From: Dictyostelium discoideum
Taxonomy: Eukaryota
Assembly (NCBI GenBank): GCA_000004695.1
Contig: CM000151.3
Span: 608,001 to 672,000, forward strand
Length of the DNA stretch: 64,000 nt
Direction: 5' to 3'
Shown here: one piece after another, positions 29,163 to 55,776 of the stretch
Numbering within the stretch: the stretch's first letter is position 1
Layout: each line of letters begins with the position of its first letter
The notes under the pieces: generated by a model
Database searches by the model: none
Seen by the model: the letters and a program-made list of their open reading frames with translations, nothing else
Told to the model about the DNA's origin: nothing
Program-made: the position numbers and the translations under genes

Positions 29163-31576
29163 ATGAGTACTTTAGAACAATATCTTAAAGTTATTGGATT
29201 AAAATCTTATAAAGATTTAATGATTGATAATGGTTAGTTTAATAAAATTAAAATTAAAATTAAAATTAAAATTTTACCAAAATAAAATAAATTTATAAAT
29301 TTTTTTTTTTTTTTTTTTTTTTTCTCCCCAAACCCCAAAAAAAATAAAATTTTTTTGTAGGATATGACGATCCAGAATTAATTTCAGAATTAACAGAAGA
29401 TGATTTGGTTGCAATTAATGTAAAAAGAGGGCATGCAAAACGTGCATTTTTAAAAGCTAAAGAATTGGCAGGTAAACAAAATGAAAGTTCAGCTAAATCA
29501 CCAGATGTTTCATCATCAACAACAACAGCATCAACATCATCATCATCATCATCATCAACATCAGCACCAGTTGAAGAAAAGAAAAGAACAACAACAATTA
29601 GTATTGGTAAAAAAGGTGAAGATAATGATGATGATGATGAAGAAGAAGAGAAAGCTTCATATAGTGGTCCAATTTTACAAAGTAAAGTATTGAATGAAGG
29701 TTTCATTCAAAAGAAAGGTAATGAAGGTTTCTTTGGTTCAAAGATGTTTCAAAAGAGATATTTTAAAATTTATGAAGAAGGAAGATTGGCATATTTTAAG
29801 AATCAAAATGATGTTTCACCAATTGGTGTTATCGAGATGAAAGGTGCATTGGCATGCGAAGATATGGAGGGAAAGCCACAAGGATTTAAATTATCCATGA
29901 AAACAAGCGCACGTGTTTATTGGTTAGTTGCAATGACCAATGACCAAAAACAAAAGTGGGTATCCGTTATCAAACAGCAAATCACCCCACCAGCCGTACC
30001 AAAACCAATAGATCCAAATGAAATCAGACCATACTTACAAAACACTGAAGAACCACCACAATGTGCCTCCACCCGTTTCGATGCATCCAATTCATGGGAT
30101 GCCATTGAAAAACAAATTATCGAGGGTCAAATTCGTTTACATATTCATAGTAATGGTGATTTATTCGTAGAGGAGACTCGTTCAATTGAAGTTGGTGAGG
30201 AGGGTTTAGTTTGGATTGAAGATTTACCAAAATCAATTGACGATCGTACAGTTCATTTCCAATCATTCACAGAGCCAACTGCTTTCGTCTCTGAACAAAC
30301 CTATCATAATGATGCAAAAACTCCAGAAAGAATGTTATCAAAATTAATTGGTAAAGAAATTCAAGTTTCAGTACCACGTGATGACCATTTCGATGAACCA
30401 TTATTACTTAAAGGTCAACTCATTTATAATGCAAATGATTCAACCTATGCTCTTCAAGATAAAGAAACCAATACAATTCATTTCCTTAAAACCGATGAAG
30501 CCATTAGTTATAATCTATTGGATACCACTACAATCGATCCAATCTTTAGAAATTCATCATTGGAATGGAATATTAATGGTAAAGAACCAAAACATTTATC
30601 AAAGATTTCTTACAATTCTAAAGATCTTTTCAAATGGAATGCTACTTATGTTTCTGTACTTAATCCAAGAGAAACTGAAATGGAAATTAGAGGTTGGTTT
30701 ACCATTGAAAATGAGTCTGGTAAAACTTTTAACAATTCAAATGTAATTCTAGTTAGAGAACCAGAGGAAAAGAAAAAAGATGAAGAAAAGACCGATGAAT
30801 CCGCCTTACCAATTGGTTTACCAAAATTGGGTGGATTCGGTTTAAAACTTCCAAAGATTGGTGGATTCGGTGGTGATTCAGAAACACCAGTACCAGAGAA
30901 GCGTATCTATCGTTATGAAGTCCCTCATAAAACTACACTCAGAGATGGCGAATCTAAACAAATCTGTTTTGTCAGTACTAAATTACCAGTAAAGTCTTTT
31001 GATTTCATCACTTTTGCAACACCAAATTATCAAAAGTATGCTATGATCGGTAAAGATCAAGGTGCAAATGCTGCCTCTTCAGTTAATTCATCGGTTACTT
31101 TCACTTGGAATTTACCATACTCAATTCCAGCTGGTCAAATGAAATTACAAAGACAATTAAAAGATAAATTTGGTTCCGATATTGTAAATACTTTTGATAT
31201 CGCTCATTATAACCCAACTGATATCATTTCATTACCACTTCAACCATTGGGTAAAGTTTCTTCAACTCGTACCCAAACTGGTTTTAACTTTGATCTCAAT
31301 GGTTTATTCATTGTTGAAACCTATGAAATTCGTGTAAACAATGGTCGTGAAGAACCAATTAAAATCACTGTTGAAGAATCTTTATACCGTTCAACTTTCT
31401 GGGAAATCACTAGTAGTAGTCATAAATTCACTCCACATCCAACTCATTCTCGTAAAATTCATTGGCAATTATCAATTCCACCACTTGATGGTGAAGTAAT
31501 TAAATATTCTGTATTTTATAGTGGTTTAAATTTACCAGCAAGTATGACTGCTAAAAAAGATGAAAAAACTAATTAA
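29163..31576 (+). CDS. SAM-domain + PH-domain protein with large conserved C-terminal region, ~762 aa; join(29163..29232,29361..31576)
   Basis: Exon 1 encodes MSTLEQYLKVIGLKSYKDLMIDN (SAM start). Donor G|GTTAGT at 29233; acceptor ttgtag at 29360. Exon 2 continues GYDDPELISELTEDDLVAINVKRGHAKRAFLKAKEL (SAM). A Ser/acidic linker follows, then a PH-like region (GFIQKKGNEGFFGSKMFQKRYFKIYEEGRLAYFKN...WLVAMTNDQKQKWVSVIK). The C-terminal 500 aa have no homopolymers. The ORF track covers 29405..31576. Confidence 0.75.
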
Positions 31577-34699: not shown

Positions 34700-35830
34700 A
34701 TAAAGGATAGATTTAAAGAATCCCATGGAAAAAGGTCAACCAAGACCACAGTTAACACAATCAACAATCATCACCTTTACCAATAATATCAACAACAACA
34801 ACTAGAAAGAATCACTCAAGGAGCAGTACATAAAGGTTATTATTAGTTAATATTGGATGAATTGAATTTGGCACACTCTGAAGTGTTGGGGGGGGGGGGG
34901 CACTAAATCATCTTTTGAATGAATATTTCTCTACCATCGATTTACAAGAAATCTAAAGTTATTGATGTCATTGATAGTGACTAATGGCGATCATTTAATT
35001 GGCAAATATTTTAATTGGTTTAGAACTACTCTTACATAAATCTTTAGAATGGGAATCACCAAAAGATCCAGAGCAACCATTAGACGATAAAGGTAAAAAC
35101 ACTTGGTAGTAAATCAAATGTTTCAAACACTGATAAAGAGATGAAAGATGAATCTAATCAAGATAATGCTGATGACTTAAATAGTGGTAGACTCAACCAA
35201 CTTCATCTGAAAATGATACAGGTAGATACTCTTAAAAATCTTAAATTTCAACTACCACCACTACCACCACAATCAAGTGCATAACAACCGCTAAAGAAAC
35301 AAAAAACAAGTTGATAAAAATCCATGTAGATCAATGGGTGATGCAAATTATGAGTTAAAGAAATGTTTAAATCTTAAACAAGAGCAAGAGGAACAATCAT
35401 GAACCAAAAGAAAAAGCACCAAATGCCAAAGAAAATGAAAATGAAAATCAAGATCATGAATTCATTAAAGATGATGAAAAACTTTATAAAGATTAAGAAA
35501 CCGATCAAGCTTTAGCCGCACTCTCAGTAGTAGTTACAAGATATTCCACTAAATAAAGCTAAAGATGATCAAGCAGAACAAGAAGAGGATCAAATGGATA
35601 TCGAAAATGAATCATTCATAATAGATTCGATTGAATCTAAAGGATATGAAGAGATTGGTGGAGGCACAACAAAGAATTGTTTTCAATTTGAAAACATTAA
35701 CTGGATTTTTTAAATCACCACTTTCTTGTTGTTACTTTTTTTCAAAGTGAAATTTCACAAAATAAAAGAAATGAAGTAATTCAATAAATAAAGAATTTTT
35801 AAATTAAGCTGATTTGGGAAGATATTTTCC
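34700..35830. repeat. GC-richer degenerate coding-like segment (decayed gene or transposon relic); its sub-segments recur at 54556-54770 and 48560-48745
   Basis: Codon-like composition but with stop codons in all frames. About 85% identity for 35215-35320 and 35525-35600 versus 54556-54700. About 85% identity for 35690-35810 versus 48640-48745 (the ...tttttaaatcaccactttc...gtgaaatttcacaaaataaaagaaatgaag... block). Confidence 0.5.
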
Positions 35831-36310: not shown

Positions 36311-36659
36311 TTAATCATTATGTTCTTTGAAATAACGTCTAATGAGTGGGAATCTAGATAATTTCTTTAAGAAATCATAGTAAGGACTTTTAGGACCTTT
36401 TGGAGCTCTTTGATCACCAAATGTGTAATGTTTAGAGATTTGAGTAGCATGCTTTGCACGAACTTTTAGACGTAAATTATCAAGATATCTAAATGCTCTT
36501 CTTTGTTTTTTCTCTTGCAAATAGCTCTCAAGATATTCTTTTCCGATTTAGAAAATGTATGCTAAAAATATTATAAATACAACAATACCAGCATACATTC
36601 CAATTGGAAATTCTGTTGTTTCCTTTTCACCATAACTAATTGTTGATTCATCTTTACAA

Positions 36660-36691
<32 letters not shown>

Positions 36692-39239
36692 TACAGCAAC
36701 AGTAATAAATAAATAGTTGAGAGATTGATGTATGTATGTATTTATAAAACTTACATTTAAATTGGAAAATTTCAGCAATAAAGTATTGACCATCAACAGA
36801 GATACTGATATTGAATTTAGTATCAGAGTAGTTATATTTTAGCATTTCAGCATAGTTGGTTACATTACAGGATACACTAGAGTAGGTGTGAATGTCAATT
36901 TCATGTTGTGTGCATGGTTTGCCATCAATTAGAATTTCAAGATTTGAATCACCAAATGATGTACCATATATAGTGATTAGAGCAGTTTGATCGATTGAAG
37001 ATGTGTTTGTGATGGTTGGTGGTTCAAATTTGTAGTAATAGCCTGCAGATGGTAGTTGGTAGTTATACATTCTTTCAGTATCAGCACTTGAACTTGTGAT
37101 TAGTAATCTTTTAGAACCAGATGTATAACGTGGTGAAAGTGATCTAAGATTTGGTGCAATTGTACATTCAATGGTTGTAACATTAATTGAAGAAATATTA
37201 CACACTACTTTACCAATGGTAACGGTTGTTGTATCTTTGGCATAGTCAAAAAAGTAATGACCATTAATAGTAACCATTCCACCACCACATGGCACTGCAG
37301 GATCACTATTTTCAATAATAGGTTTCAAAGTGTATTGTTCAAGCATATTACTTTGTTGATCACCAAGTTGGAATCTATAGCTTGCAGTCTTTTTATTACC
37401 TACAGGATAACCAAATATAAGATACTCATGGCCACTTGCTATTACTGTACCATTTAATGTAATGCCACCAGAAAAAACAACAGTTATTATCGAATCCTTA
37501 ATAGAGTCACCTAGGTTATAACCATTAATTTTAATGTTACCATTTTTCTCTTGATAAACTTCAGTAAGTTGTGGAGGATTGTAACTAACATTAAATGAAC
37601 CAATTTGTAAAAGATTATAGTAAATGTTTATCGTGTGGTTTGACCCGAAGCCAGATTTTAAAACACAAGTAAATGATAAACCATCACCATCTTTCGAATG
37701 AATACAAATTGGACCATCAGGCTCACTCTCAAATGTTAATGGGATATCTCTACCATCAAAATCTACAGTTCTCATAAAGATACCTTTAATTTTTAAATCA
37801 TCACCAGGTGTATTTGATTTAAAGCTTTGACCATCAGTAATAGTTGGAGTGATCTTGAAATTATATCTTGGAGCTCTAAATGATTCATCACCATCCTCAA
37901 TAGCGAGTTCCATAAAACCAGGCTGGGTATTATTTGGTAGGAATATGAAAATGGTATTATTACTTTCAATAAAAAAACCAGGTTCTTCCAATGTTGATGT
38001 AGAATTCATTTTGGTAATATTGGTTTTCATACTCATACCAGTAATTACAGTAATAACAATAACTTTAGAAAGATATACACCAGTTACATTGAAAATCTGT
38101 GAATTTCCCCTTTGTTGAACATTTTGAATCAATGGAAGATCATAGGATATTTTAATTGTATTGCTTGTGTATTCACCATCAATCTATTAATAAAAGATCA
38201 AAAAATAATTAGTAATTGGTTATGTTTAGTTATAATATATATTATTATCTCTTACAGTAACAGTTAATGGAATATTATAGCCAAGAAAACCATAGTTTTT
38301 ACGAGTTGGGAGAGTGCATGTTATACTTTTTGAAGAATTGGTGTTGAAACATTCAATTCTTTTATTACCAAAAGTACCGGTAACATTTTGTTTAGATCTT
38401 AAATGATTTCCAGTAAATGTAACATTTCCACCATTATTGTTTAGAACTCCTTCCATTCTTATCAGTTCTGGTGAAAATGAGAAAGTATAACTTCTATAAA
38501 ATGTGTCACATATTTTGACATCTATTTTCCAGAGACCCTGATATCTTGCTTCATTTATTGAAAATTTAACCTCGGTGTGGTCATCATTAATAATACCAAA
38601 CTCTTTGCGATTGGAGTAGATATCATTTTTTGAAAAAATTTCAATGGAGGTGTTAAACAGGTTACTTCCTTTAATAGTAAAACTACCCTCACCATCAAGT
38701 AATGGATCTACTGGTATTGAACCCATTTCATACGTAGCATCGAAAAAGTTCCATTTGCCCAACCTATTATCATAATAAAATTTTAAAATACCGCATCCTT
38801 TGGGTATTTGGATATTGAAAAGGTCCAATGTAGAGTTATAGATAGGCCAAAAATTAACACCATTTAATATAATAGGTTTTACCATCCCATTTGACCTATA
38901 TGCAAGATTATATTCAAAGTTAAAATTTCCACCAGTGGTTGGCATTTTTGGAAACGAAGAGATCTCTGGTATAAAAAAAACTAAAGCCGAAATGTCGTAT
39001 AGCTTGTTTTTGTATGGGTAATTGAGAATATCAAAATAATATCCATCAGCAGCCTTTTCTAGACTAACTTCAATTGCTTTATTATCATATAGGGTAAATG
39101 ATTCTACCTGTTTTGTGCAATTTAGTTTAGTTACCACCAATGAGTTTGGTGATTCATCCTTCGTAAAAATACATTCTGGTTTGGAAAATAAAAATTTATA
39201 AATTAAAATTACAAAAATAGATATATATTTTATTTTCAT
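36311..39239 (-). CDS. tgrB-type IPT/TIG-repeat single-pass membrane protein (tiger family); join(38256..39239,36755..38183,36548..36651) ~839 aa, plus an in-frame 79-aa basic tail ORF (36311..36547) beyond a TAA
   Basis: Signal peptide MKIKYISIFVILIYKFLFS. Repeated IPT/TIG signatures (GGMVTINGHYF, ITVVFSGGITLNG, IYGTSFGD). Donor GTAAGA at 38255 with acceptor attaatag at 38184. Donor T|GTAAGT at 36754 with acceptor ttgtaaag at 36652. Transmembrane helix GMYAGIVVFIIFLAYIF. An in-frame TAA (36548-36550) is followed by a stop-free tail ORF (IGKEYLESYLQEKKQRRAFRYLDNLRLKVRAKH...RRYFKEHND). The gene is divergently paired with a tgrC-type gene. Confidence 0.8.
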
Positions 39240-39654
39240 TTTATATAAATTAAAAAAAATAAAGAAAAATTTTATTATTAAAAAAAAAAAAAAATAAAGA
39301 AAAATTTTATTATTAAAAAAAAAAGAATGAAATAAAAGAAAAAAAAAAAACTAAAGTGGGACAAAAAAAAAAGAAAGAAATAAAAGAAAAAAAAAATAAA
39401 GTGGGACAAAAAAAAAAAATTGTGTTTTGCTTTAAATAATTTTTGAGAAATTTTCTAAAGAGTGTGAGTTTCGATTAAAATATATTTAATCAGCCCTTTC
39501 AAAAATTTGGAGGGGGGGTTAAATAATTTTTTTTGGATTTTCTAAAACTTCAAACAGTGTCATTTCGATTAAAATAAAAATTTTAAACCCCTTTACTCAA
39601 ATTTCTCCTATTTATAGAATTTATTAATATTTTTTTAAATAAATTTATTATTAT

Positions 39655-39697
<43 letters not shown>

Positions 39698-39754
39698 TAC
39701 TTGGGTTTTTTTTATTTTTTAATCATTTTATTAATTCTTTTTAAAATTATAATT
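39240..39754. promoter_or_regulatory. shared bidirectional promoter between the tgrB-type (minus) and tgrC-type (plus) genes
   Basis: 515-bp AT-rich intergenic region between two divergent start codons. It contains an internally duplicated GC-containing module (39440-39500 and 39541-39610: agagtgtgagtttcgattaaaatatattt..cccttt..caaaaatttggaggggggg). The same module recurs upstream of the second tgrC-like gene at 43095-43160. Confidence 0.5.
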
Positions 39755-42384
39755 ATGATTACATTAAAAACTATATTATTTTTAATTTTTTTAGTTTCAT
39801 TTGTTTCATCAGATAATAAAATTAAACCACCTATAGCATGGGGTATTTAGCATTTTTAATTTTAATAGTTGGGTTTTTAAAAATTAATGTTTTAATAATT
39901 AATATTTTTATTTTTATATTTTTTAATAGAGGTAATACGCAATGAAACTTCTTTGATATTAACATATTATAAAAGTCAACCTTATGTTACGAGTCTTATT
40001 ATGTTCAAAGACAAAACCACTCCAAGAACTGATTTTCCAAATTATTTTAATTGTAGTCTCATTGTTGGAGAATTTAGATATTGTATATTCCATTCTGAAC
40101 TTCCTTTTTCAAGATTCTGGGGTAGTATTTATAGTAAGGTATGTGCAAGAGAAGAAGCAGATCCAAGAGAGGATTGCACGTCCTATACATTAGATGAAGT
40201 GATATATATTCATCCATATAATGTTAAATTTAGTGGGCCTGTACCAACATCAGGAGGTGATATTATTATTAACGGTACTTTTTTAAGAATCTCAGGAGGT
40301 CCAAATACAATGGATTATGTCGTCCATGGTTCTTTTTCGAAAGTGGTTGTCAAAGGTAATTTCTCAGATCCATCATTTAACTGTAATAATATCACCGTTA
40401 CGATTCCACCAGGTGGCGGATTTTTTAAACTAATTTTTGGCGAACTTGGAGGAGGAGAATTTGATATTTCATATGCACTTCCAATAATTTCAGATATTGT
40501 CCAGGATTCATCAAAACAACTAATTACAGTTAATGGCCATAACTTTTTTACTGATAATGGATTGGTAGGTGTTTTTTTTGATAATGTCTACCAAAAAAAT
40601 ATAAATATTACAATCAATCATACACAAATTCAAGTGATGGGATTTAATAGAGTTGATCCTGGTCCAATGTCTATTGCTATTGTTATAAAAGATGTATATA
40701 TCGAAAAGAATTATATTCATTGTTTCCCAGCAATAATAACATCAATATCATCAGTATCAAATGAATTGGGTGGTATTGTAACAATTAAAGGTTCAAAGTT
40801 ATCTTCAACTTCAAATTCATCATTAATTCCAACAATTACAATTGGTAAAAAACAATGTAAATTTATTAAATCATCAACAACTGAATTAGAATGTAAATTA
40901 GATCCAAATGAATTTGGCGGTAAAAAGTTATCAGTTGATGTTAATTTCAATGGTTGTAATTCAACAAGTTCTAGTAGTATTCCTGTAACATTTACATATA
41001 ATATCCCAACATTATCAAGTGGGTCATTTTCAAATGGTGTCGTTGCTTTAATTGGGAAAAACCTAGGAAATTATGATGAATCATTCATTCAATTATATGC
41101 AAGTGGAATTAATACAAAAATTGACAAATTTTATACATCATCTGATGAAAAGAGTATATCATTTAAATTACCACTTTTGAGATGTAAATCATTTAATATA
41201 AGTTTCAATAGTGATGGGATTTCTTCAAATGTACTTTCAATTTCAGCATCATTATCAATTAATGTAATTAATAAACCATCAGTACCAAATGGAACATTAA
41301 ATATTGAATTTTATTATATCGATTGTTCAATTAGTTCATCATCAACACCATATATTACAGTTGGTAACTTCTTTACCTATCAATGTTCAATACCATCATT
41401 ACAATCACCAACATTAGATTTTTATCAAACATCATGTTCAATACCATATGGTACTGGTATGAATAAACAATTCACATTCAAATATTATTCATATGAAGTA
41501 AATGAAAAATTTTCATATTCACCACCAAAAGTTGAATCACGTTCATTCTCTAATGATAAAACTATTATTACAATTAATGGTAATAATTTTGGTAATTCAA
41601 AATCATTGATTCAAGTTTATTTCAATGGTAATGATATTTCATCAAAAATTCAATCATTAAATAATAATCAATTTACATTTAAAATATTAAATTCATATAA
41701 AAGTGGTCCAATTAATATTACTGTAGATGGTAGTAGTATGGATTCGTTATTTTATTTAACATTACCCCCTATTATTAATGATATAATAAATAAAGATAAT
41801 AAAACATTAAGTTGTGGAAGTTTAATTACAGTTTCAGGCAATAATTTATTAACAAATGATGAAGAATTCAAAGTTAAAGTATTAGCAAATAATCAAGATA
41901 CAACAATAATTAAACAAGATGAAAACATATTATTAGTTAAATCTGATAATAATGAGAGTCCACTAAATGTTTCAGTATTTATTGGTAATGATTTAATAAT
42001 ATCAAATGTAACATTAACATATTTAGAACCAATAATTACAGTAATTCCAACTATTAAAAATAATAAAGATGGTATTTCAATAATAATTGGTGGGATTAGT
42101 TTGTCAAATATTATTAATGCAAGTTTAACACTCTCTTCAAATGATAATAATAATACTATAATACCTCTTAAATGTAATTTACAATGTAGTTTGTCCCCAA
42201 ATGGCACATTTTATATTAATAATACAATAAGTTCAAATGAAATTGATATTACTAATCGTTTATTATGCCATTCAAACTCAATTGTTAATGAGACATCAGG
42301 AGTATTAAATCTTCATTTTACTTCGATATCATTCCATCATTTTGTTAAAATTGATGAATCTGAATCTACTTCATCTTCGCCATT

Positions 42385-42468
<84 letters not shown>

Positions 42469-42574
42469 GTCATTTAGTGGCGGAAGTAAATCAAGTAAAT
42501 TATCAAGTAGTACAATTGCTGGTATTACAATTGGTTTTTTTAGTGTTGTTGGGGTTTTTGTTGATATATTTTAA
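39755..42574 (+). CDS. tgrC-type IPT/TIG-repeat membrane protein, ~910 aa; join(39755..39842,39930..42574)
   Basis: Exon 1 encodes signal peptide [19 protein letters not shown]. Donor G|GTATTT at 39843; acceptor taatag at 39929. Exon 2 is the 873-aa ORF. At least seven TIG-like units ([39 protein letters not shown]...). A poly-Ser stalk is encoded by (TCA)n, followed by a C-terminal TM helix ([19 protein letters not shown]) with no cytoplasmic tail. Confidence 0.85.
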
Positions 42575-43345
42575 AAATAATCACTCATGCCAGAAACTCT
42601 TAAAATAAAATTTTCAAATTAATTTTAGAAATTAATGGAAATATAAATATAAACAATAATAAAAAAATAAAAATATTACTTAGGATTTTTTTAAACATTT
42701 CTTTTATTTTAAGCAAACAAGGTTTTTTTTTAATATTTAAATTTATGTCCACTTTTCAATGGCCATAAATTAACCTTTTTTATCTAATTTTTTTCATGAT
42801 TTTGTGCCATATCAATTTCTGCTGGCATTTTAACATATTAATTTCAGCCTAGTATATGCATGCTGCAATTAATATGTCAAAATCACCATAATAGTTCTAA
42901 CATTCAGTTTTAATTAGTGTTTTATCTATATCCTACTTTGGAAAAAATTTAAATAGTGTTTTTTGATTATCCATCATATTTTAAGAAATATTTATTTTTT
43001 ATATATTATCTATGATTTTTAAATTATCCAATTTTTTTTTTAAATTTAGGTGATATGAGCACTCTTGTTATTAAAAAAATTCTGAAGGGGGAGTGGTAAA
43101 TAATTTTAAAGAGTGTTAGTTTCTTTTAAAATATATTTTCATCCCTTCAAAAAATTGTACATAAAAAACTTATTTTTAATTTGATAGGTTCTATTATTAG
43201 AATTTTATAATATTTTTTTAAATTTTTTTATATAATGCTTGAAACATATTTTTTTATTTATTTTATAATTTTTCAATTGTTTGTTTAACAAAAATTTTTA
43301 TATTTATTTTTGTTAATCATTTTGTTTATTCTTTCAAATATTATT

Positions 43346-45954
43346 ATGATATTAAAAACAATATTAATTTTTTCGTTTTTAGTTTCATTTTTTTCAACTG
43401 CTCATTCAATTGAAAAACCTTTTGTAATAGGTATTTATCTTTTAAATTTAAATACAGTGTAAATTTAAATACAGAAATCTATTTTTTTTTAATAATTCCA
43501 TTTATGTTTTTAAAATTAATAACTGTATTTAAATATTGTTGAACATTAGAGGAAATACACAATGAAACTTCTTTGATTTTTAAATTTTATAAAGAAAGGT
43601 CTTATATTAGCCGTCTGGAAATGTATAAAGACCGAGAAACTCCAAGAACTGATTTTCCAAATTATTTCGACTGTACTCTCATTATTGGAGAATATAGATA
43701 TTGTGTTTTGCATTCTGACCTTCCTTTTTCTAGACTATGGGGTAGTATTTATAGTAAGGTATGTGTAAGAGATGTATCAAGTCCAAGAGTGGATTGTATT
43801 TCATATAAGATAATAGATGTTTCATATGTGGCTCCAGTAAATGTCAAATTTACCAGTCTTCCTCCAACCTCAGGAGGTGATGTCGTTATAAATGGTAGTT
43901 TTTTAAGGTTCGTTGGAGGTCCAAATAAACTTGATCATAGCATTCCTCCTTTTAACCCATTTTATGTTAAAGGCGATTTCTCAGATCCATCATTTAACTG
44001 TAATAATATCACTGTTACATTTCCACCAGGTTCCGGATCATTTTGGGTATTTTTTATTGACGGAGTAAGTGGTGAATATTTAATTTCTTATGCACACCCA
44101 AAAATTTCAGGTTTTATTGTGGATTTATCAAAAAATGTAATAATAATTGATGGAGATAACTTTTTTACTAATAAATCTTTGGTTCAAGTTTATTTTGATG
44201 ATATCCAACAACAAAATATAAGTATTACAATTAGTCATACACAAATTCAAGTAATAAACTTCAATAGAATCGATCCTGGTCCAATGTCTGTTCTTATTAC
44301 AGTAAATGGAGTTCAAACCCAAAATAATTATACTCATTGTTTCCCGTCAATTATTACATCAATATCTTCAGTATCAAATGATTTGGGTGGTATAGTAACA
44401 ATTAAAGGTTCAAAGTTATCTTCAACTTCAAATTCATCGATAATTCCTTCAATTACAATTGGTAATAAACAATGTAAATTTATTAAATCAACAACAACTG
44501 AATTAGAATGTAAATTAGATCCAAATATATCTAGTGGTAAAAAGTTATCAGTTGATGTTAATTTCAATGGTTGTAATTCAACAAGTTCTGGTAGTAGTCC
44601 TGTAACATTTACATATAATATTCCAGCACTATCAAGTGGGTCATTTTCAAATGGTATCGTTACATTAATTGGGGAGAATCTTGGTAATAATAAAGAATCA
44701 TTCATTCAATTATATACTAATGAAATTAATATAAAAATTGAAAAATTTAATATATCATCTGATCAAAAGAGTTTAACATTTAAATTGCCACATTTAAAAT
44801 GTAAATCATTTAATATTAATTTCACTCGTAATAATATTTCAATTAACACAATTTCAATTTCGGCATCATTATCAAATAATGTAATTAATAAACCATCAGT
44901 ATCAAATGGAACATTATTTATTGAATTGTATTATATCGATTGTCCAATTAGTTCATCATCAAAACCAACTATTACAGTTGGTAATTCATTAACCAATCAA
45001 TGTTCAATACCATTATTAAAATCATCAACATCAGATTATTATGAAACAACATGTTTAATACCATTTGGTACTGGTATCAATAGACAATTCGCATTGAAAT
45101 ATAATTCAGAGTTAGTAAATAACATTTTCTCATATGCACCACCTATTATTAATGATATAATAAATAAAGATAATAAAACATTAAGTTGTGGAAGTATTAT
45201 AACAGTTTCAGGTAATAATTTATTAACAAATGATGAAGAATTCAAAGTTAAAGTATTAGCAAATAATCAAGATACAACAATAATTAAACAAGATGAAAAC
45301 ATATTATTAGTTAAATATGATATTAATGAGAGTCCACTAAATGTTTCAGTATTTATTGGTAATGATTTGATAAAATCAAATGTAATATTAACATTTTTAC
45401 AACCAATAATTACAGTTATTCCAAATATTAAAAATAATAAAGATGGTATTTCAATAATAATTGGTGGAATTAGTTTGTCGAATATTATTAATTCAAGTTT
45501 AACACTCTCTTTAAATGATAATTTAAATACTATTATACCTCTTAAATGTAATTTACAATGTAGTCTATTTCCAAATGATACATTTTATTATAATAATACA
45601 GTATTAAGTTCAAATGAAATTCATATTACAAATTATACTGATAGTTTATTATGTCATTCAAATTCAATAATTAATGAAACATCAGGAGTATTAAATATTC
45701 AATTTGCTCAAACTTCATTCCATTATGATGTTAAAATTGATGAAATTGAATCTTCATCATCATCATTTTCACAATCATCTTCACCATCATCTTCACCATC
45801 ATCTTCACCACCATCTTCAACATCATTATCATCTTCACCATCATCATCATCATCATCATCAATAAGTGGTGGAAGTAAATCATTAAGTGGTACAGTTGCA
45901 AGTATTACAATTGCTTGTGTTGCTGTTGTTGGTGCTCTTGTTGCTATAATTTAA
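43346..45954 (+). CDS. tgrC-type paralogue 2, ~822 aa; join(43346..43430,43550..45954); lacks one TIG unit relative to 39755..42574
   Basis: Same architecture: signal peptide MILKTILIFSFLVSFFSTAHS, donor G|GTATTT and acceptor cattag. About 70% aa identity to the upstream paralogue. An ~88-aa segment ([16 protein letters not shown]...[10 protein letters not shown]) present in the first paralogue is absent. Ser/Pro-rich stalk followed by TM helix ITIACVAVVGALVAII. Confidence 0.85.
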
Positions 45955-46559
45955 AATAATCAATCGTGCTTAAAACTCTTTTAAAATAATATTTTCAAAT
46001 TTATTTAAAAAAAAAAAAATTAATGGAAATATAAATAAACAATAAACAATAATAAAATATTATATGAATTTTTTTTAATTTCTTTATTTTCAATGCAAAA
46101 GTGATTATTATATTGTTATTGTTATTTTTATTATTATTGATAGTGATGTGTAGTTAATGGTGATACTAAACGAGTTTCATAATATAATTTCATTAAATGA
46201 TGCTAACTGCGAGTTAATTTAACTTTTCTTTGACAGAGTCTTTATCCTCCTCAACACCATCATTTTCTTCGATTTCTTGATAATTATTATCAAAACTTTT
46301 TCTTTGTCAATATTTGTGAGATTTTATAACTGTTCCTTTGTGAATTTTTGATTTAAGCCATCCAATTTTCTCTTTCTTTTTGTTGTTACTATTTCCGATA
46401 TCTATTTGATCCTTTTCTTGTTCTGCTTGATCAACTTTCTTCCTCCTCATCTTTAGCTTTATTTTGTGGAATATCTTGTACCTCTGAGAGCGCAGCCAAA
46501 GGTGGATCGGTTTCTTAATCCTTATCAAGTTTTTCATCATCTTTAATGAGTTCATAATC

Positions 46560-46917
46560 TTGATTTTCTTAGGTATTTGGATCTACTACTAAGTGTTACT
46601 ATTATTATTACTATTACTATTACTATTACTATTACTATTACCAATAGCAATACTATTTCCATCAACTGAATTTAAACTTGATAAACTAGTTGAATTTGTT
46701 GTTGATTCTTCTGTTGAGTGTTGAAGTGGTTGTATTTGTTAATAATAATGAGTGTGAAATTGAAATATGATAAAATTGATCAGAGAAATGGTAGGTGTTG
46801 TGCCCAAAAAAGCGAAAGTGAAAAATAAATTCCCTTTTTACTATTACCAATGTTCCTTGGATATTTAATAATTAAATTAGTGGAATTAAACATAGTCTTA
46901 ATATTTTTAATGACACA

Positions 46918-48783: not shown

Positions 48784-48872
<89 letters not shown>

Positions 48873-49095
48873 TAATTAATTAATGAACGTCAGTTACTAC
48901 AACAGCAGATTCAATTAACTAAACAGCAACCACAACAACAGCAACAATTAATTAATGAACGTCAACAACAACATCAACAACAACAACAATTAATTAATGA
49001 ACGTCAGTTACTACAACAGCAGATTCAATTAATTAAACAGCAACCACAACAACAGCAACCAATGAATCATACAACACCTCCATCACCTCATCATT
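48775..49095 (+). repeat. (CAA)n microsatellite plus 2.3 tandem copies of a ~63-bp unit (ttaattaatgaacgtcagttactacaacagcagattcaattaaYtaaacagcaaccacaacaacagcaac)
   Basis: Read directly from the sequence. It would encode a poly-Q/LINERQ repeat and is fused at ~49092 to the 3'-truncated tgrB-like pseudogene. Confidence 0.6.
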
Positions 49096-51458
49096 TAAGA
49101 TTTGAATCACCAAATGATGTACCATATATAGTGATTAAAGCAGTTTGATTGATTGAAGATGTATTTGTAATGGTTGGTAGTTCAAATTTGTAGTAATAAT
49201 CTGCAGATTGTAGTTCGTAGTTATACATTCTTTAAGTATCAGCACTTGAACTTGTGATTAGTAATCGTTTAGAACCAGATGTATAACGTGGTGAAAGTGA
49301 TCTAATATTTGATGCATTTACACATTCATTGGTCGTAACATTAATTGAAGAAATATTACACACTACTTTACCGATGGTAATGGTTTTTGTATCTTTGACA
49401 TAGTTAAAAAAGTAATGACCATTAATAGTAACCATTCCACCTCCATATGGCACTTCAGGATCACTATTTTCAATAATAGGTTTCAAAGTGTATTGTTCAA
49501 GCATATTACCCCGTCGATCACCAAGTTGGGAAATTTAGCTTGCCGTCTTTTTATTACCTATAGGATACCCAAATATAAGATACTCATGGCCACTTGCTAT
49601 TACTGTACCATTTAATATACTGCCATCAGAAAAAACAACAGTTATTATTGAATCCTTAATAGAGTCACCCTAGGTTATAACCATTGATTTTAATGTTACC
49701 GTTTTTCTCTTGATAAACTCCAGTAAGTTGTGGAGGATTGTAACTAACATTAAATGAACCAATTTGTAAAAGATTATAGTAAATTTTTATCGTGTAGTTT
49801 GACCGGAAGCCAGATTTTAAAACACAAGTAAATGATAAACCATCACCATCTTTTGAATGAATACAAATTGGGCCATCAGGCTTACTATTAAATGTTAAGG
49901 GATATCTCTGCCATCAAAATCTACAGTTCTCATAAAGATACCTTTAATTTTTAAACTATCACCAGGTGTATTTGAATAGAAGCTTTGACCATCAGTAATA
50001 GTTGGAGTGATCTTGAAATTAAATCTTGGAGCTCTAAAAGATTTATCACCATCTTTAATAACTAGTTCCATAAACCAGGCTGGGTATTATTTGGTAGGTA
50101 TATGAAAATGGTGTTATTACTTTCAATAAAAAATCCAGGTTCTTCCAATGTTGATGCATACTTTTTGGAAATATTGGTTTTCATACTCATACCAGTAACT
50201 ACTGTGATATTACTAACTCTAGAAAGATATATACCAGTTACATTGAAAACCTGTGAATTGCCCCTTTGTTGAACATTTTGAATCAATGGAAGATCATGCG
50301 ATATTTTAATTGTATTGCTTGTGTATTCACCATCGATCTATTAATAAAAGGTCAAAAATAAATTAGTAATTGGTTGTATGTAGTTATAATCTCCTATTGG
50401 TTTTGTATTCACCATCAATCTATTAATAAAAGATCAAATAATAATTAGTAATCGGTTATAATATATATTATTATCTCTTACAGTAACAGTTAATGGAATA
50501 TTATAGCCAAGAAAACCATAGTCTTTACGAGTTGGGTGAGTGCATGTTATACTTTTTGAAGAATTGGTGTTGAAACATTCAATTACTTTATTACCAAAAG
50601 TACCGGTAACATTTTGTTTAGATCTTAAATAGTTTCCAGTAAATGTAATATTTCCACCATTATTATTTAGCACTCCTTCCATTCTTATCGGTTTTGGAGA
50701 AAATGAGAAATAATATTCACTATAAAATGTGTCACATATTTTGACATTTATTTTCCATTCGCTCCGATAACTTGTTTCATTTATTGAAAATTTGACTTCA
50801 GTATGAGCATCATTAATAGTACCAAACTCTCTGCGACTGGCTTTAGTATCATTTTGAAGAGAAAAGATTTCAATGGTGGTGTTAAACAGGTTACTTCCTT
50901 TAAAAGTAAAACTACCCTGATCATCAAGTATTGGAACTTTTGACATTTCGCCCTTTTAATACGTTGTATTGAAAATATTCCACCTTCCGATATTATTATC
51001 ATAAAAATTTAAAATACCACATCCTTTGGGTATTTGGATATTAAAAAGGTCCAATGTAGAGTTATAGATAGGAGTGGATATAAAATCTTTTGTTGAGATA
51101 GCACCTTCCCAGTTGACTTATTAGGAAAATTATATTCGAAGTTGAAATATTCACCTGTGGTTGGCATTTTTGGAAACAAAGAGATCTCTGGTACAAAATG
51201 AATACTTGAAGACAGGTCGTATAGCTTGTTTTTGTATGGGTAATTGAGATTATCAAAATAATAATAATTTCCATCAGTAGCCTTTTCTAGATTAACTTCT
51301 ATTGTTTTATTATCATATAAGGTAAATAGTTCTATCTGTTTTGTGCAATTTAGTTTAGTTACCACCGACGAGATAGGTTCATTCTTCATAAAATCACAAT
51401 TTGATTTGGAAAATAAAAATTATAAAATTATAAAAATAGATATATGTTTTATTTTCAT
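49092..51458 (-). pseudogene. tgrB-type pseudogene (psi-A2): 3'-truncated, with frameshifts and stops
   Basis: Colinear with 36940..39239 of the intact tgrB-type gene, including the intron. ORF fragments at 49232..49504, 50062..50286, 50434..50946 and 51009..51389 are all in the tgr family. A stop follows codon 12 after the ATG at 51458. The C-terminal exon and tail are missing. Confidence 0.75.
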
Positions 51459-51628
51459 TTTTATAAATTACATTTAAATTTAAAAAAAAAAAAAAATTAA
51501 GAAATATTTTATTAAAAGAATAAAAAAAAGAGTAAATGAAAAAAATGAAAAAAAAAAAATTAAGAAATATTTTATTAAAAGAATAAATGTTAATTTAATT
51601 AATAATAATATTTATATTTTTAAAATAG

Positions 51629-53318
51629 AGGTAATACACAATGAGACTTCTTTGATATTAACATTTTATAAAAATTAACCCTATGTTACCAGTCTTATTA
51701 TGTACAAAGACAAAACCACTCCAAGAACTGATTTTCCAAATTATTTTAATTGTAGTCTCATTGTTGGAGAATTTAGATATTGTGAATTCCATTCTGACCT
51801 TCCTTTTTCAAGGTTCTGGGTAGTATATATAGTACGGTATGTGCAAGAGAAGTATCAGATCCAAGAGAGGATTGCACATCCATTTAATTGATGTGAAATA
51901 TATTCCCCATATAATGTCAAATTTAGCAGACTTCCACCAACGTCAGGAGGTGATTTTATAATAAATGGTACTTTTTTAAGAGTCTCAGGAGGTCCAAATA
52001 CACTTGATTTTTTCACAAGGGATGATCATTTGAAATTAGTTGTTAAAGGTAATTTCTCAGACCCATCATTTAACTGTAATAGTATCACTGTTACATTTCG
52101 ACCAGATGGCGGATTAATTTTGTTGGTTTTTGGCGAACTTGGAGGTGGGGAATATAGGATTTCATACGCACCTCGAATGATTTCAAGTATTGTTCACAAT
52201 CCATCGAAACAAATAATAACAATTAATGGTGATAACTTTTTTAATGATGACAGAAAGGTTGGTGTTTTTTTTGAAAAAATCTACCAACCAAATATAAATG
52301 TTACAATTAACCACACTCAAATTCAAGTGAATAACTTTAATAGAGTTGATCTTGGTCCAATATCTATTGCTGTTGTTGTAAAAGATTTATATATTGAAAA
52401 GAATTATATTCATTGTTTCCCTGCCATATTAACATCAATAACATCAGTATCAAATGTTTTAGGTGGTATTGTAACAATTAAAGGTTCAAAGTTATCTTCA
52501 ACTTCAAATTCATCATTAATTCCTTCAATTACAATTGGTAATAAACAATGTAAATATATTAAATCAACAACAACTGAATTAGAATGTAAATTAGATCCAA
52601 ATGAATCTGGTGGTAAAAAGTTATCAGTTGATGTTAATTTCAATGGTTGTAATTCAACAAGTTCTGGTAGTAGTGCTGTAATATTTACATATAACATTCC
52701 AACATTATCAAGTGGATCATATTCAAATGGTATCGTAACATTAATTGGTAAAAATTTAGGAAATTACCAAGAATCATTCATTCAATTATATGCAAATGGC
52801 ATTATTACAAAGATTGATAAGTTTAATACTTCATCTGATGAAAAGATTTTAACAATTAAATTATCACTTTTAAGATGTAATTCAGTAAATATTAATTTCA
52901 ACATGGATGGTATTTCTTCAAATAACCTTTCAATTTCAGTATCGTTATTAACAAATATAATTAATAAACCATCAGTATCAAATGTAACATTTTATATTGA
53001 ATTATATTATATTGATTGTCCAATAAGTTCATCAACACCAACTATTACATTTAGTAATTCATTAACCAATCAATGTTCAATACCATCATTACAATCATCA
53101 ACATCCGATTTTTATCAAACTACATTCTCAATACCATATGGTACCGGTATCAATAAACAATACACATTCAAATACATTAAATGATTAATTCTCATATTCA
53201 CCACCAAAAGTTGAATCACGTTCATTCTCTAATGATAAAACTATTATTACAATTAATGGTAATAATTTTGGAGATTCGAAATCATTGATTCAAGTTTATT
53301 TCAATGGTAATGATATTT
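51629..53318 (+). pseudogene. tgrC-type pseudogene (psi-B3): lacks exon 1 and promoter, with frameshifts
   Basis: It starts at the exon-2 acceptor (aatag|AGGTAATACACAATGAGACTTC). A frameshift near 51830 gives [15 protein letters not shown] stop lies at 53185 with homologous sequence continuing out of frame to 53318. Only ~200 bp separate it from the psi-A2 start, compared with 515 bp in the intact pair. Confidence 0.75.
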
Positions 53319-53609
53319 CAACCCCTCCCCCACTTAAATTAATATCTTTTTTTTTCTAACGCCACAAAAAGTGCAAAAATTATTACAAAATAAATATTTT
53401 CAAAATTCAAAATAAAAGAAATAAATAATGTATATTTTATTTAAATTTAATAAAAAAAAATTTTTGAAGCAAATTATATATTATTAAAATTTTTTTTTTT
53501 AATATTTTTTTTTTTATTTAATGAGCCAAAACATATTTTATTATTTATTTTCTAAGTTTTGGTTGAACATTTTTTTTTTTTCATTTTTTTTATCCTTTTT
53601 AATATTATA

Positions 53610-54555
53610 ATGACATTAAAAACAATATTATTTTTGACTTTTTTGGTTTTATTTTTTTCAACTGCTTATACAATTGAAAAACCTTGGGTTACAGGTATTT
53701 ATCTTTTTTAATTTTTATACAGTTTAGTATTGAAGTCAATTGTTTTTAAAAAATTCTATTTTCATGTTTTGTAATTAAATAGAGGTAATTTACAATGAAA
53801 CTTCATTGGTTTTTAAATATTTTAAAGATCAACCTTATATTAGCCGTCTTGTAATGTATAAAGACCGAGAAACTCAATATTTCGACTGTACTCTCATTAT
53901 TGATGATCATAGATATTGTGTATTCCATTCTGACCTTCCTTTTTCGAGATTATGGGGCAGTCTAGAGAGTATGGTATGTTCAAGAGATGTATCAAGTCCA
54001 AAAGTGGATTGTTTATCCTATAGGATTATAGATGTTTCATATGTGAAACCAATAAATATTAATTTTACCAGACTTCCTCCAACATCAGGGGGAGATATTG
54101 TTATTAATGGTAATTTTCTAAGATTCGTTGGAGGTCCTAATAAACTTTATAATAGCATTTCTCATAGTAATCCATTAGAAGTTAAAGGAGATTTCTCATA
54201 TCCATCATTTAACTGTAATAGTATCACTGTTTCATTTCCCCCAGGTTCCGGACCATTTGAGGTGTATTCTATTGACAGAATAGGTGGAGAATATTTAACT
54301 TCTTATGAACCGCCAAAAATTTCAAGTTTTATTCTGGATCCATCAAAACAAATAATAACAATTGATGGTGATAACTTTTTTACTGATAGCTCTTTGGTTC
54401 AAGTTTATTTTGATGAAATCCTACAACAAAATATAAGTATTACAATTAGTCATACACAAATTCAAGTGAAACACTTTATTAGAACCGATCCTGGCCCAAT
54501 GTCTACTCGTATTACTGTAGATCAAGTTTCGACACAAAATAATTATATGATATAA
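53610..54555 (+). pseudogene. truncated tgrC-type 5' gene fragment (psi-B4); join(53610..53694,53783..54555)
   Basis: Intact signal-peptide exon and splice sites, with a B2-like promoter remnant upstream. There is an in-frame ~18-nt deletion (RETQYFDC versus [14 protein letters not shown]). Homology ends at 54545, where repeat R1 begins, leaving a stop after ~280 aa and no TM domain. Confidence 0.65.
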
Positions 54556-55050
54556 ATAGGTACACTTTAAAATCTTAAATTTAAACCACCACCGGTACAA
54601 TCAAGTGCATAATAACCACCAAAGAATCAAAAACTAGTTACAAGATATTTCACTAAATAAGGCTTGAAAAAGATCATCAAGATTGTGAAGATGATAAATT
54701 GAATGGTTCAAATCAAAAAGAACAATTCATAAAGGTTTGATTTTGATTGAACCACCTAACGACTTTTTGGGGTCTCTTGTATGATAATTCATTCCAAAGA
54801 TGATTTGATGACTGTTACCATTACTATTACTATTACTATTACTATTACTATTACTATATATATTATTTTCTCTACTTATACCAATAGCATACCAATACCA
54901 ATTGTTATTTTTTTTTTTTTTTTTTTTATTATTTATTATTTATTTGTTTATTTACTTATTTATTTATTTATTTTTACATCTAAATGTACATTTTCTATTT
55001 GTATTTATTTTTTGTTTTCTTTTTTGGTTGATGTTGCTCCTGTATTATTT
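54556..55050. repeat. composite of repeat R1 (54556-54770) and R2 (54780-55050) abutting the truncated tgrC fragment
   Basis: See R1 (34700-35830) and R2 (46560-47110). Confidence 0.5.
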
Positions 55051-55536
55051 GATTTTATTAAAAGACAATTATTTTTTTTAATTATTTATTTTTATTTTTT
55101 TTATTTTTTTTTTTATAAAAATTTTTATTTTTTGTATACAAAATATATCAAAAACGAATTTAATTATTATTATTTTTAATTTTTTTTTTTTTTTTTTTGG
55201 GTTCAATTGAGAAAAAAAAATTAACTTGACTGAATTAGTTGTTTTTTTTTTATTTTTTAATAAATGAATTAAGTTATCTTGTTACATCTTGTTTTTTTTT
55301 TAATTTATTAATTCAAACATTCACATTATTTTTTAAAAAAAAAAAAAAAAAAATATACCAATTAATTCAACCAAATTTTTTTCTTTTTTAAAATCTATTT
55401 TTTATATAAAATATATTCACTCTTTGTTGTTCTTCAAAATAAAAAATAATTACAAAAAATGAATGAAAAATAATTAAATTCTATATACTTAATATTCACA
55501 AAAATTCTTATTATATAAGAGTAATTTTTGTTTGTA

Positions 55537-55776
55537 TTAATTTTTATTGTTCTTTATTCTGATCCCCATGGTTCCTTGGCATTCAACCTGGTATGTACAA
55601 TTTCTTTCATTGTCATCAGCGCTTCTATCACAAATTGAACACTCGCGTTTTCCATATGTTCCACCTTCACTGTAATGTAAGTTTCCCCCACATTCTCTGA
55701 TGTGCTTTTCTGGTGATGGTAATAAACGCAAACAAGAGTTGCATTGATATTCTTGGGTTAATTTTGTTCTGCTCAT
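55537..55776 (-). CDS. small Cys-rich ORF, 79 aa, unusually GC-rich (~40% GC)
   Basis: MSRTKLTQEYQCNSCLRLLPSPEKHIRECGGNLHYSEGGTYGKRECSICDRSADDNERNCTYQVECQGTMGIRIKNNKN. Eight Cys including two CxxC pairs. No signal peptide. Its composition is unlike surrounding DNA. It could be a zinc-ribbon micro-protein or a transposon ORF relic. Confidence 0.3.
   Translation of the reverse strand: MSRTKLTQEYQCNSCLRLLPSPEKHIRECGGNLHYSEGGTYGKRECSICDRSADDNERNCTYQVECQGTMGIRIKNNKN

Follow-up and report, generated by a model that had tools for sequence, protein, structure and literature searches.

For kin recognition in a social microbe, the tgr family is the textbook case, and the kind of system considered here is already known. 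Within the window (the whole analyzed stretch of 64,000 nucleotides of Dictyostelium discoideum DNA) a preliminary description had placed a tgr-type allorecognition locus at positions 36311–45954. This raises the questions of which tgr genes are located here and whether they form a working recognition pair. Our analysis leads, with a probability of about three in four, to the reading that this is the best-preserved unit of a birth-and-death array of tgrB/tgrC paralogues on chromosome 2 of strain AX4, with a receptor gene that is disabled in the laboratory lineage.

Composition and arrangement of the cluster

The presence of one B-type tgr gene on the minus strand and of two C-type genes in tandem on the plus strand (here named Ca and Cb) was confirmed at 36311–45954. 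As proposed before, IPT/TIG repeats were found in all three (Pfam TIG, E=1.7e-20 for the B-type gene and 2.1e-24 and 3.6e-19 for Ca and Cb, respectively). The features of the core unit are:

36311–39239, minus strand: B-type tgr gene (tgrB/E/J clade; Pfam TIG), splice structure from sequence and homology to TgrB1
39239–38256, 38183–36755 and 36651–36311, minus strand: exons of the B-type gene, separated by GTAAG...AG introns (38255–38184 and 36754–36652)
38256–39239, minus strand: exon 1 of the B-type gene, signal peptide and hypervariable N-terminal ectodomain (from between-strain identity and dS)
36551–36607, minus strand: single transmembrane helix of the B-type gene, approximately aa 820–838, ...MYAGIVVFIIFLAYIF (from hydropathy and alignment)
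36548–36550, minus strand: in-frame TAA, codon 839, directly 3' of the helix, in the window and in the AX2-214 assembly
36311–36547, minus strand: stranded cytoplasmic-tail ORF, 78 codons and stop (from alignment with the TgrB1 and TgrE1 tails)
39240–39754, no strand: divergent spacer between the start codons of the B-type gene and Ca, putative shared promoter, 515 bp
39755–42574, plus strand: Ca, C-type tgr gene, 910 aa (exon 1 39755–39842, intron 39843–39929, exon 2 39930–42574)
43346–45954, plus strand: Cb, tandem C-type paralogue, 829 aa (exon 1 43346–43430, intron 43431–43549, exon 2 43550–45954)

The core three genes lie within the extent that had been given for the locus, but the cluster itself runs on to 56941, with decayed B- and C-type copies at 49094–56941. 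It is flanked by a SAM/PH gene, a BEACH-domain gene, NIP7 and a RING/Kelch gene, and a tRNA scan found none near the cluster. The window was 99.5% identical to the AX2-214 contig JBTAPE010000001.1.

Ca and Cb additionally matched the Ig_TgrO1 domain (E=1e-19 to 5e-22). Hydropathy peaks at aa 1–20 and at the C-terminus of both proteins indicated a signal sequence and a single C-terminal membrane helix, respectively. The B-type protein had a signal-peptide-like N-terminus and a peak at aa 816–845. A sequence search of solved structures gave no match for Ca or for the B-type profile. The predicted structure was all-beta and resembled multi-Ig/IPT ectodomains (DSCAM, contactin, plexin IPT); this model of the AX4 annotated protein had a mean pLDDT of 56 (70–88 at approximately aa 40–340, below 50 beyond aa 590) and was used solely for confirming an all-beta multi-domain ectodomain.

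Family membership and identity of the genes

Protein searches confirmed the membership in the tgr family, with TgrB1 and TgrE1 as best matches of the B-type protein and TgrC1, TgrD1 and their relatives as those of Ca and Cb. The top matches included TgrB1, Tiger protein E1, TgrC1/LagC and tgrD1. All strong homologues were Dictyostelium Tgr proteins, and no non-Dictyostelium homologue was among the matches of these searches.

The AX4 protein XP_645603.2 is identical to the B-type protein of the window over aa 1–804 and the last 60 aa. It is encoded on an AX4 record of 8,484,197 bp, which we take to be chromosome 2. The window proteins shared 58–63% identity with TgrB1, TgrE1, TgrC1 and TgrD1. 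For the B-type protein it was approximately 62–63% to the TgrB1 alleles, compared with approximately 88% among the TgrB1 alleles themselves; identity to TgrC1 was 58%. In neighbour-joining trees (calculated without bootstrap support) the window genes grouped with their syntenic counterparts on chromosome 2 of other isolates, and these clades stood beside and not within those of TgrB1, TgrE1, TgrC1 and TgrD1.

Whether the genes are tgrB1/tgrC1 or tgrB2/tgrC2 themselves had been left undecided. The shared architecture, with two divergent genes separated by approximately 0.5 kb, would fit this identity. However, tgrB1/tgrC1 and tgrB2/C2 belong to the tgrBC locus, which spans 104 kb of AX4 chromosome 3 and is bounded by wacA, chdB and DDB_G0280717 (PMC12745789), so that both the chromosome and the flanking genes are wrong. 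Furthermore, 58–63% identity is outside the allelic range, the clades are separate, and tgrB2 (DDB_G0280693) is a gene of only 990 bp (bioRxiv 10.1101/2025.10.22.684067). We therefore regard this identity as refuted. The proposed match to the tgrB1/tgrC1 cassette holds for the family and the head-to-head B/C layout, but locus, clades and degree of identity are different. Elimination would leave the B-type gene as the candidate for the 'J' of tgrBEJ and the C-type genes as candidates for the 'K' of tgrCDK.

A pair of B-type and C-type paralogues outside the tgrBC locus is also represented by tgrE1/tgrD1 (TgrE1 = Q54L75), from which the window genes are equally distant (63% and 59% identity). 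TgrE1 and TgrD1 retain their cytoplasmic tails, unlike the window genes.

A premature stop codon in the B-type gene

The helix of the B-type protein reached a Kyte-Doolittle maximum of 2.31 over aa 816–845 and aligned with the transmembrane helix of TgrB1 and TgrE1. The basic tail ORF described for this gene was present and in frame with the helix, and the 78-codon stretch contained 20 K/R versus 8 D/E; however, it is severed from the gene by the TAA at 36548–36550. The TgrB1 cytoplasmic motif AFRxLDNLRLK is conserved in the stranded ORF, and the position equivalent to the TgrB1 phosphosite S845 is a Tyr in all chromosome-2 alleles. While the tail of TgrB1 is in frame, the receptor-type gene of the window is cut before the tail in both AX4 and AX2.

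In the tropical D. discoideum isolates ACTFIW and ACTFIR codon 839 is TAT (Tyr). The stranded ORF shared 96% aa identity with the in-frame tail of ACTFIW at a dS of 0.068. A sequencing error was ruled out as the origin of the TAA, because the independent AX2-214 long-read assembly showed the same codon. We also rejected a short real intron excising the TAA. Splicing out the 51 nt that the AX2 model treats as an 'intron' would remove the conserved membrane helix, and the same 51 nt are ordinary coding sequence in the isolates with TAT. Readthrough of the TAA, which stands in the context TAA-A, would be unlikely.

Since the TAA is located between helix and tail, the B-type gene as written encodes no tailed protein and can make at most a tail-less one. 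The public models XP_645603.2 (AX4) and KAM9951517.1 (AX2-214) bypass the nonsense codon via invented introns, and as a consequence the membrane helix is lost from the predicted protein. Surveys of Tgr domains that rely on these two entries would misclassify the gene.

The C-type genes

The description of the plus-strand genes as ending at a hydrophobic helix after a Ser-rich stalk proved correct for both Ca and Cb. In Ca a run of approximately 30 Ser lies inside a longer Ser-rich stalk upstream of the hydrophobic C-terminus. Neither protein has a cytoplasmic tail, and the tail-less end was common to Ca, Cb and the intact chromosome-2 C copies of ACTFIW. A short cytoplasmic tail has been reported as a feature of the C-type ligand (PMC4404348); TgrC1 and TgrD1 carry such a basic tail after the helix (YFKxxxRVKxxF), whereas the chromosome-2 C-type proteins lack it.

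Cb had been described as a tandem copy. It is indeed a C-type paralogue but not a plain copy of Ca, since one 81-aa TIG repeat is missing. The two shared approximately 66% identity in the N-terminal part (ORF aa 1–560) and 98% in a block of 50 columns just past the deletion. The second C copy of ACTFIW aligned with Cb over its full length without the 81-aa insertion (803 columns, 801 residues).

None of the three spliced proteins was present in an exact-sequence look-up in a collection of 5.8 billion proteins, and neither Ca nor Cb was represented there by an entry from AX4. The latter would fit an annotation as pseudogenes in the reference, and one could suppose that the entire cluster including Ca and Cb consists of pseudogenes, the two C-type genes being still free of disabling mutations. 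The nonsense codon of the B gene and the plainly dead adjoining units point in the same direction. However, the reading frames of Ca and Cb are uninterrupted over 910 and 829 codons, and two ORFs of 2.5–2.7 kb are unlikely to stay open by chance at approximately 25% G+C. Pairwise dN/dS between Ca/Cb and the chromosome-2 copies of other isolates was 0.4–0.6 and not approximately 1, which suggests that some constraint persists on both genes. Both are called as genes in the AX2-214 annotation, which gives the same 910-aa product for Ca (0 differences), and isolates appear to have in common both the tail-less C-terminus and the loss of one domain from the b-type copy. Overall, we consider a cluster made up of pseudogenes only to be improbable.

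The intergenic spacer

The reported intergenic region of 515 bp between the divergent genes was exact from start codon to start codon. The following motif copies were found:

39461–39482: spacer motif AGTGTGAGTTTCGATTAAAATA, inside the 515-bp spacer
43112–43133, plus strand: second copy of the spacer motif, with mismatches at 2 positions, lying 213 bp ahead of the start codon of Cb

These 2 matches in the 64-kb window compare with 0.01 expected by chance. Conserved blocks were common to the spacer of the window and the syntenic spacer of cf. discoideum. The B/C layout matched that of the real tgrB1/tgrC1 pair (spacer of 515 versus 600 bp). The two spacers themselves showed no alignable similarity beyond scattered G/C-rich boxes, and hence it is from the layout alone that the 515 bp can be termed a putative shared promoter.

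Decayed units downstream

Remnants of two further units were identified in the region up to 56941:

49094–51458, minus strand: unit 2, B-type pseudogene (tblastn hits in three frames, 68–70% identity)
51628–53323, plus strand: unit 2, decayed Ca-like pseudogene, equivalent to aa 30–601 (from homology)
53571–54549, plus strand: unit 2, Cb-like 5' fragment, promoter-proximal region and approximately aa 28–290 (from homology)
56244–56941, minus strand: unit 3, B-type remnant, aa 1–79 fused to aa 542–737 (from homology)

The B-type pseudogene of unit 2 carried a stop in the signal peptide and several frameshifts and was truncated at the equivalent of aa 744. It shared up to 93–94% nt identity with the B gene at a spacing of approximately 12.2 kb. 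The Cb-like fragment showed 72% aa identity to Cb and 84–87% nt identity to its 5' region. The pseudogene state of units 2 and 3 indicates that the locus evolves by birth and death with segment exchange between copies.

Variation between strains and species

The SAM/PH-domain flanking gene and the B|C C layout recurred in three other genomes. In comparison to the syntenic ACTFIW allele, the B-type protein showed only 32–42% identity per 50-aa window over aa 1–250 and 90–98% beyond aa 450. Compared with two tropical isolates, identity was approximately 39% for B-type aa 1–250, 70–78% for the C genes and 98% for the flank, in a set of 2–3 genomes with shuffled tandem copies in which alleles and swapped paralogues are indistinguishable. 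The dS was 1.2 in B-type exon 1 versus 0.06–0.10 in the flank and the 3' part. In tgrB1/tgrC1, between-strain variation is likewise located N-terminally in the B-type protein, whereas TgrE1 is conserved between isolates (approximately 94% identity), in contrast to the highly divergent chromosome-2 B-type gene.

The B-type gene is intact in isolate ACTFIW (922 aa), and the locus may thus be functional in some strains. It is frameshifted in ACTFIR, and in cf. discoideum all copies are broken, although frameshifts read from long-read assemblies may reflect homopolymer errors.

These data allow to consider a second working polymorphic recognition pair with allele-specific B–C binding, in which balancing or diversifying selection caused the N-terminal divergence and the AX4 receptor allele is a null or a decoy. 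The divergence profile has the shape known from TgrB1 (variable N-terminus, conserved rest) and is even stronger (approximately 39% versus 59–82% over aa 1–200). The AX4-type B N-terminus is shared to approximately 70% with the cryptic sister species, the B and both C genes are intact in ACTFIW, dN/dS is below 1, and the head-to-head layout is accompanied by a conserved spacer motif. On the other hand, the dS of the variable part is also very high, which suggests a segment that is old or imported and not rapid adaptive change. In AX4/AX2 the B gene is disabled; its counterpart in ACTFIR carries a frameshift, and that of cf. discoideum has decayed. Published replacement and loss-of-function experiments with tgrB1/tgrC1 are described as accounting for recognition. 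Apart from tgrB1, tgrC1 and tgrM1, most tgr genes have been reported to show little or no expression in AX4 (bioRxiv 10.1101/2025.10.22.684067). We therefore hold a second working pair to be unlikely. Slightly less probable again is an independent recognition module that is live in wild strains with an intact B gene (e.g. ACTFIW) and silenced by the nonsense mutation in the NC4/AX lineage; its ligands would be tail-less and possibly lipid-anchored, and its two divergent B haplotypes would be under cross-species balancing selection.

Evolution and putative function of the array

According to the preferred reading of a decaying paralogue array, each unit would pair a single B-type gene head-to-head with two genes of the C type. 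The array would be a paralogue of the chromosome-3 tgrB1/tgrC1 cassette in the rapidly duplicating tgrBEJ/tgrCDK group. Both follow the same domain plan, in which a signal peptide precedes a series of IPT/TIG and Ig-like domains and a single membrane helix. The two differ in chromosome and flanking genes as well as in the two C genes per unit and the adjoining decayed units of the array.

By analogy with TgrC1 and TgrB1, we infer that the C-type proteins are surface ligands and the B-type protein a receptor. The conserved cytoplasmic domain of TgrB1 includes the phosphosite S845 and the position of the activating L846F change, and the published activating mutation suggests that this domain carries the signal. 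One change from TAT to TAA just past the helix strips the entire tail in the lineage of the lab strains. The remaining membrane-anchored protein could bind but would probably not signal, and it could serve as an adhesion partner or decoy. The designation as an allorecognition locus is unsupported in AX4, in which the premature stop removes the conserved cytoplasmic domain of the receptor-type gene. Most likely the cluster is not a working recognition pair in this strain, and it may lack expression.

Birth-and-death evolution, many pseudogene pairs and mostly low expression have been reported for the tgr family (PMC12745789; bioRxiv 10.1101/2025.10.22.684067). Our findings leave the known picture of tgr-type systems unaltered. 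The origin of new tgr specificities is an open question, and the cluster exemplifies the proposed birth and death with segment exchange beyond the chromosome-3 locus. There, tgrB2 and tgrB_ps/tgrC_ps1 are truncated or pseudogenised B/C copies like those of the array. The larger part of the protein, along with the membrane helix, is absent from the 990-bp tgrB2, whereas the chromosome-2 B gene loses the tail only. Two deeply divergent N-terminal haplotypes of tgrB2 segregate (bioRxiv 10.1101/2025.10.22.684067), and the same pattern was found in the chromosome-2 B gene.

Gene structure and domain composition

The window, which is very rich in A+T, contains at 36311-45954 three genes with short introns of the Dictyostelium type. 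These are a tgrB-like gene (here named B-type) and two tandem tgrC-like genes (Ca and Cb), together referred to as unit 1.

39239-38256, 38183-36755 and 36651-36311, minus strand: B-type gene, three exons
39755-39842 and 39930-42574, plus strand: Ca, 910 aa
43346-43430 and 43550-45954, plus strand: Cb, 829 aa

In both Ca and Cb a short exon coding for the signal peptide is followed, after an intron of about 90-120 nt, by a single long exon. According to Pfam all three proteins carry IPT/TIG domains, and Ca and Cb additionally a TgrO1-type Ig domain; hydropathy analysis gave a single strong C-terminal helix for each (3/3). The ectodomain of the B-type protein is predicted as all-beta and resembling multi-Ig/IPT adhesion receptors such as DSCAM, contactins and plexin IPT domains in an AlphaFold model of only moderate confidence. 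Exon structures, domains and helices confirm the three genes of the preliminary description. Its assignment of family and architecture was correct as well, and the divergent start codons of the B-type gene and Ca are exactly 515 bp apart, as it had stated.

Genomic location and relation to known tgr genes

The B-type protein corresponds to AX4 entry XP_645603.2 (UniProt V9H176) with exact matches at residues 1-804 and the last 60 residues. This entry is encoded on a record of 8,484,197 bp, which we take to be AX4 chromosome 2. Contig JBTAPE010000001.1 of the independent assembly of laboratory strain AX2-214 was 99.5% identical to the window over 23 kb, with no difference in Ca. An AX4 protein entry for Ca or Cb was absent from a collection of 5.8 billion proteins; the AX2-214 annotation lists products of 910 and 777 aa at these positions.

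A 104-kb locus on chromosome 3, delimited by wacA, chdB and DDB_G0280717, contains the genes tgrB1/tgrC1, tgrB2 (gene size 990 bp; bioRxiv 10.1101/2025.10.22.684067) and tgrC2 (PMC12745789). The neighbours in the window are SAM/PH-domain, BEACH-domain, NIP7 and RING/B-box/Kelch genes, unlike those of the chromosome-3 locus:

315-3944, minus strand: RING/B-box/Kelch protein gene, ordinary neighbour
7511-8098, plus strand: NIP7 homologue, ordinary neighbour
10267-10339, plus strand: tRNA-Arg(TCT), ordinary neighbour
14210-22686, minus strand: large BEACH-domain (Lvs-type) protein gene, ordinary neighbour
29348-31573, plus strand: SAM/PH/DUF4139 protein gene, ordinary neighbour, used as synteny anchor

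Location on chromosome 2 instead of 3 and the different neighbours therefore rule out both pairs that had been considered, tgrB1/tgrC1 and tgrB2/tgrC2. The earlier uncertainty over the exact gene identity was justified, as the genes form a chromosome-2 paralogue cluster.

The B-type protein shared 62-63% identity with TgrB1 alleles and 63% with the cluster containing Tiger protein E1, compared to approximately 88% among TgrB1 alleles and 94% among TgrE1 orthologues. For Ca the identities were 58% (TgrC1) and 59% (TgrD1). In neighbour-joining trees (without bootstrap support) the window genes clustered with syntenic chromosome-2 genes of other isolates, the B-type genes as a third clade beside TgrB1 and TgrE1 and the C-type genes as a clade of their own next to TgrC1, TgrD1 and the C paralogues of chromosome 3. 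The literature groups the family into tgrBEJ and tgrCDK; by elimination, the B-type gene may be a 'J' and the C-type genes 'K' members. Systems of this kind, the family and the way it evolves have been described before, and the reference genome contains these genes.

A nonsense codon ahead of the cytoplasmic tail

By homology to TgrB1, exon 3 of the B-type gene reads ...EFPIGMYAGIVVFIIFLAYIF, TAA and then IGKEYLESYLQEKKQRRAFRYLDNLRLKVRAKHATQ...KEHND in one frame. The in-frame TAA (36550-36548, minus strand) is also found in the AX2-214 assembly. In both tropical D. discoideum isolates (ACTFIW and ACTFIR, corresponding to CR116C and OT3A in one order or the other) the codon is TAT (Tyr), and membrane helix and tail are uninterrupted. 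The 'basic tail ORF' noted before thus exists in frame with the helix, but it is cut off by the TAA and is therefore a stranded piece of the B-type gene.

Both public models bypass the TAA via different introns (36548-36651, minus strand) and lose the helix. AX4 model XP_645603.2 (885 aa) reads 20 codons of the genuine intron 2 as coding sequence before splicing into the tail; AX2-214 model KAM9951517.1 (900 aa) removes 51 nt coding for helix and stop. Because this 51-nt stretch is conserved as ordinary coding sequence in the TAT isolates, these introns are very probably artefacts. A by-product of this analysis is thus a nonsense codon masked by both public gene models.

The stranded tail is 96% identical to that of ACTFIW with a dS of 0.068, close to the level of the flanking gene (AX4 versus ACTFIR: 98.1% nucleotide identity, dS 0.064, dN/dS 0.12), which makes the mutation look recent. 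The 'highly conserved intracellular domain' of TgrB1 contains the phosphosite S845 and the position of the activating L846F change (PMC11088635; PMC12142906). The motif AFRSLDNL of TgrB1 corresponds to AFRYLDNL in all chromosome-2 alleles. Loss of the tail should abolish signalling.

Decayed units and comparison between strains

The arrangement of unit 1 recurs with a spacing of approximately 12.2 kb, and a decayed second and a partial third unit occupy 49094-56941, beyond the interval first described:

49094-51458, minus strand: unit 2 B-type pseudogene, stop in signal peptide, three reading frames, truncated
51628-53323, plus strand: unit 2 Ca-like pseudogene
53571-54549, plus strand: unit 2 Cb-like 5' fragment
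56244-56941, minus strand: B-type remnant (unit 3)

CAA-rich and 42-nt tandem repeats (48798-49070) adjoin the truncated end of the unit 2 B-type pseudogene and are probably part of a Gln-rich coding sequence replacing its 3' end. Inverted repeat copies of about 180 bp flank unit 1 (35443-35608, 46391-46568; 81% identity). Related copies occupy comparable positions in the ACTFIR locus (L003) and in locus L004, so the repeat may indicate where the duplicated unit ends.

The same layout was found beside the same SAM/PH gene in three other genomes. ACTFIW carries an intact B gene (922 aa) and two intact C genes. ACTFIR has frameshifts in the B gene, which in long-read assemblies may be errors, and four tandem C copies. 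In the cryptic sister species cf. discoideum (ACTFIY) all tgr copies at the locus are broken. It appears improbable to us that the cassette works as a second, live recognition module in strains that, like ACTFIW, retain an intact B gene. We favour, with a probability of roughly 0.75, a paralogue array evolving by birth and death that is not a working recognition pair in AX4; in the laboratory lineage the receptor-type gene is truncated ahead of its signalling tail, and the neighbouring units are dead. The four ACTFIR C copies (L003 10001-22673) alternate between Ca-like and Cb-like, which suggests that the pair duplicates as a unit.

Between AX4 and ACTFIW, B-type residues 1-250 shared only 32-42% identity per 50-aa window (overall 39%, dS 1.2, dN 0.53), whereas past residue 450 identity reached 90-98% (dS 0.10). 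The AX4-type N-terminus was about 70% identical to the cf. discoideum copy and lay no nearer to the ACTFIW type than to TgrB1 or TgrE1. Judged by this contrast, the B gene is a mosaic of orthologous 3' two-thirds and an N-terminal segment that would be a very old allele or an import from another copy; with two or three other genomes, alleles and shuffled paralogues are not fully separable. The pattern equals that recently described for tgrB2 and the chromosome-3 locus (bioRxiv 10.1101/2025.10.22.684067; PMC12745789), and extends extreme mosaic divergence to a tgr locus outside chromosome 3. The C genes differed between strains by 22-30% at the protein level (dS 0.24-0.35, dN/dS 0.4-0.6).

The C-type genes

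Neither Ca nor Cb has an interrupted reading frame. Relative to Ca, exactly one 81-aa TIG repeat is missing from Cb, with a recurring PP motif at the edges. The second ACTFIW C copy aligns to Cb without the 81-aa insertion, so that the loss of the repeat seems to be an older trait of 'b'-type copies. Ca and Cb were approximately 66% identical N-terminally (ORF aa 1-560) and 82% C-terminally, yet 98% in the 50-column block directly after the deletion and 95% in one 300-nt block. These blocks point to sequence exchange between the two.

The four intact C copies of chromosome 2 (two each in AX4 and ACTFIW) all stop directly after the hydrophobic segment and lack the short basic tail that follows it in TgrC1 and TgrD1 (PMC4404348). 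Small residues (SGG), about 10 polar residues and a hydrophobic end of 19 residues make up their C-terminus. In general form this composition is also compatible with a GPI-attachment signal, which is only a suggestion. Traces of a TgrC1-like tail (YFK...) can be read in another frame 3' of the Ca and Cb stops (42560-42610, 45940-45990; compared with 2581-2730 of L005, a locus with a real tgrB1/tgrC1 pair). Small indels in a tailed ancestral gene would thus have produced the tail-less end, which every C copy examined on chromosome 2 shares. The Ser-rich stalk of Ca is encoded by a TCA-type trinucleotide tract (about 42356-42470), likely a length-variable coding microsatellite, with a poly-His ORF (42342-42608) in another frame.

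The putative promoter region

The 515-bp spacer did not align with a real tgrB1/tgrC1 spacer; from the layout, shared regulation of the B-type gene and Ca is plausible. The spacer contains a few G/C-rich islands and, at 39461-39482, a 22-nt motif AGTGTGAGTTTCGATTAAAATA (= AGTGTNAGTTTCGATTAAAATA). A second copy with two mismatches is located 213 bp upstream of Cb (43112-43133), with none elsewhere in the 64-kb window, apart from a third, 1 nt shorter copy at about 39556. The motif, discernible also in the spacers at the syntenic position in other isolates, is a candidate regulatory element that may have travelled with the C-gene duplication.
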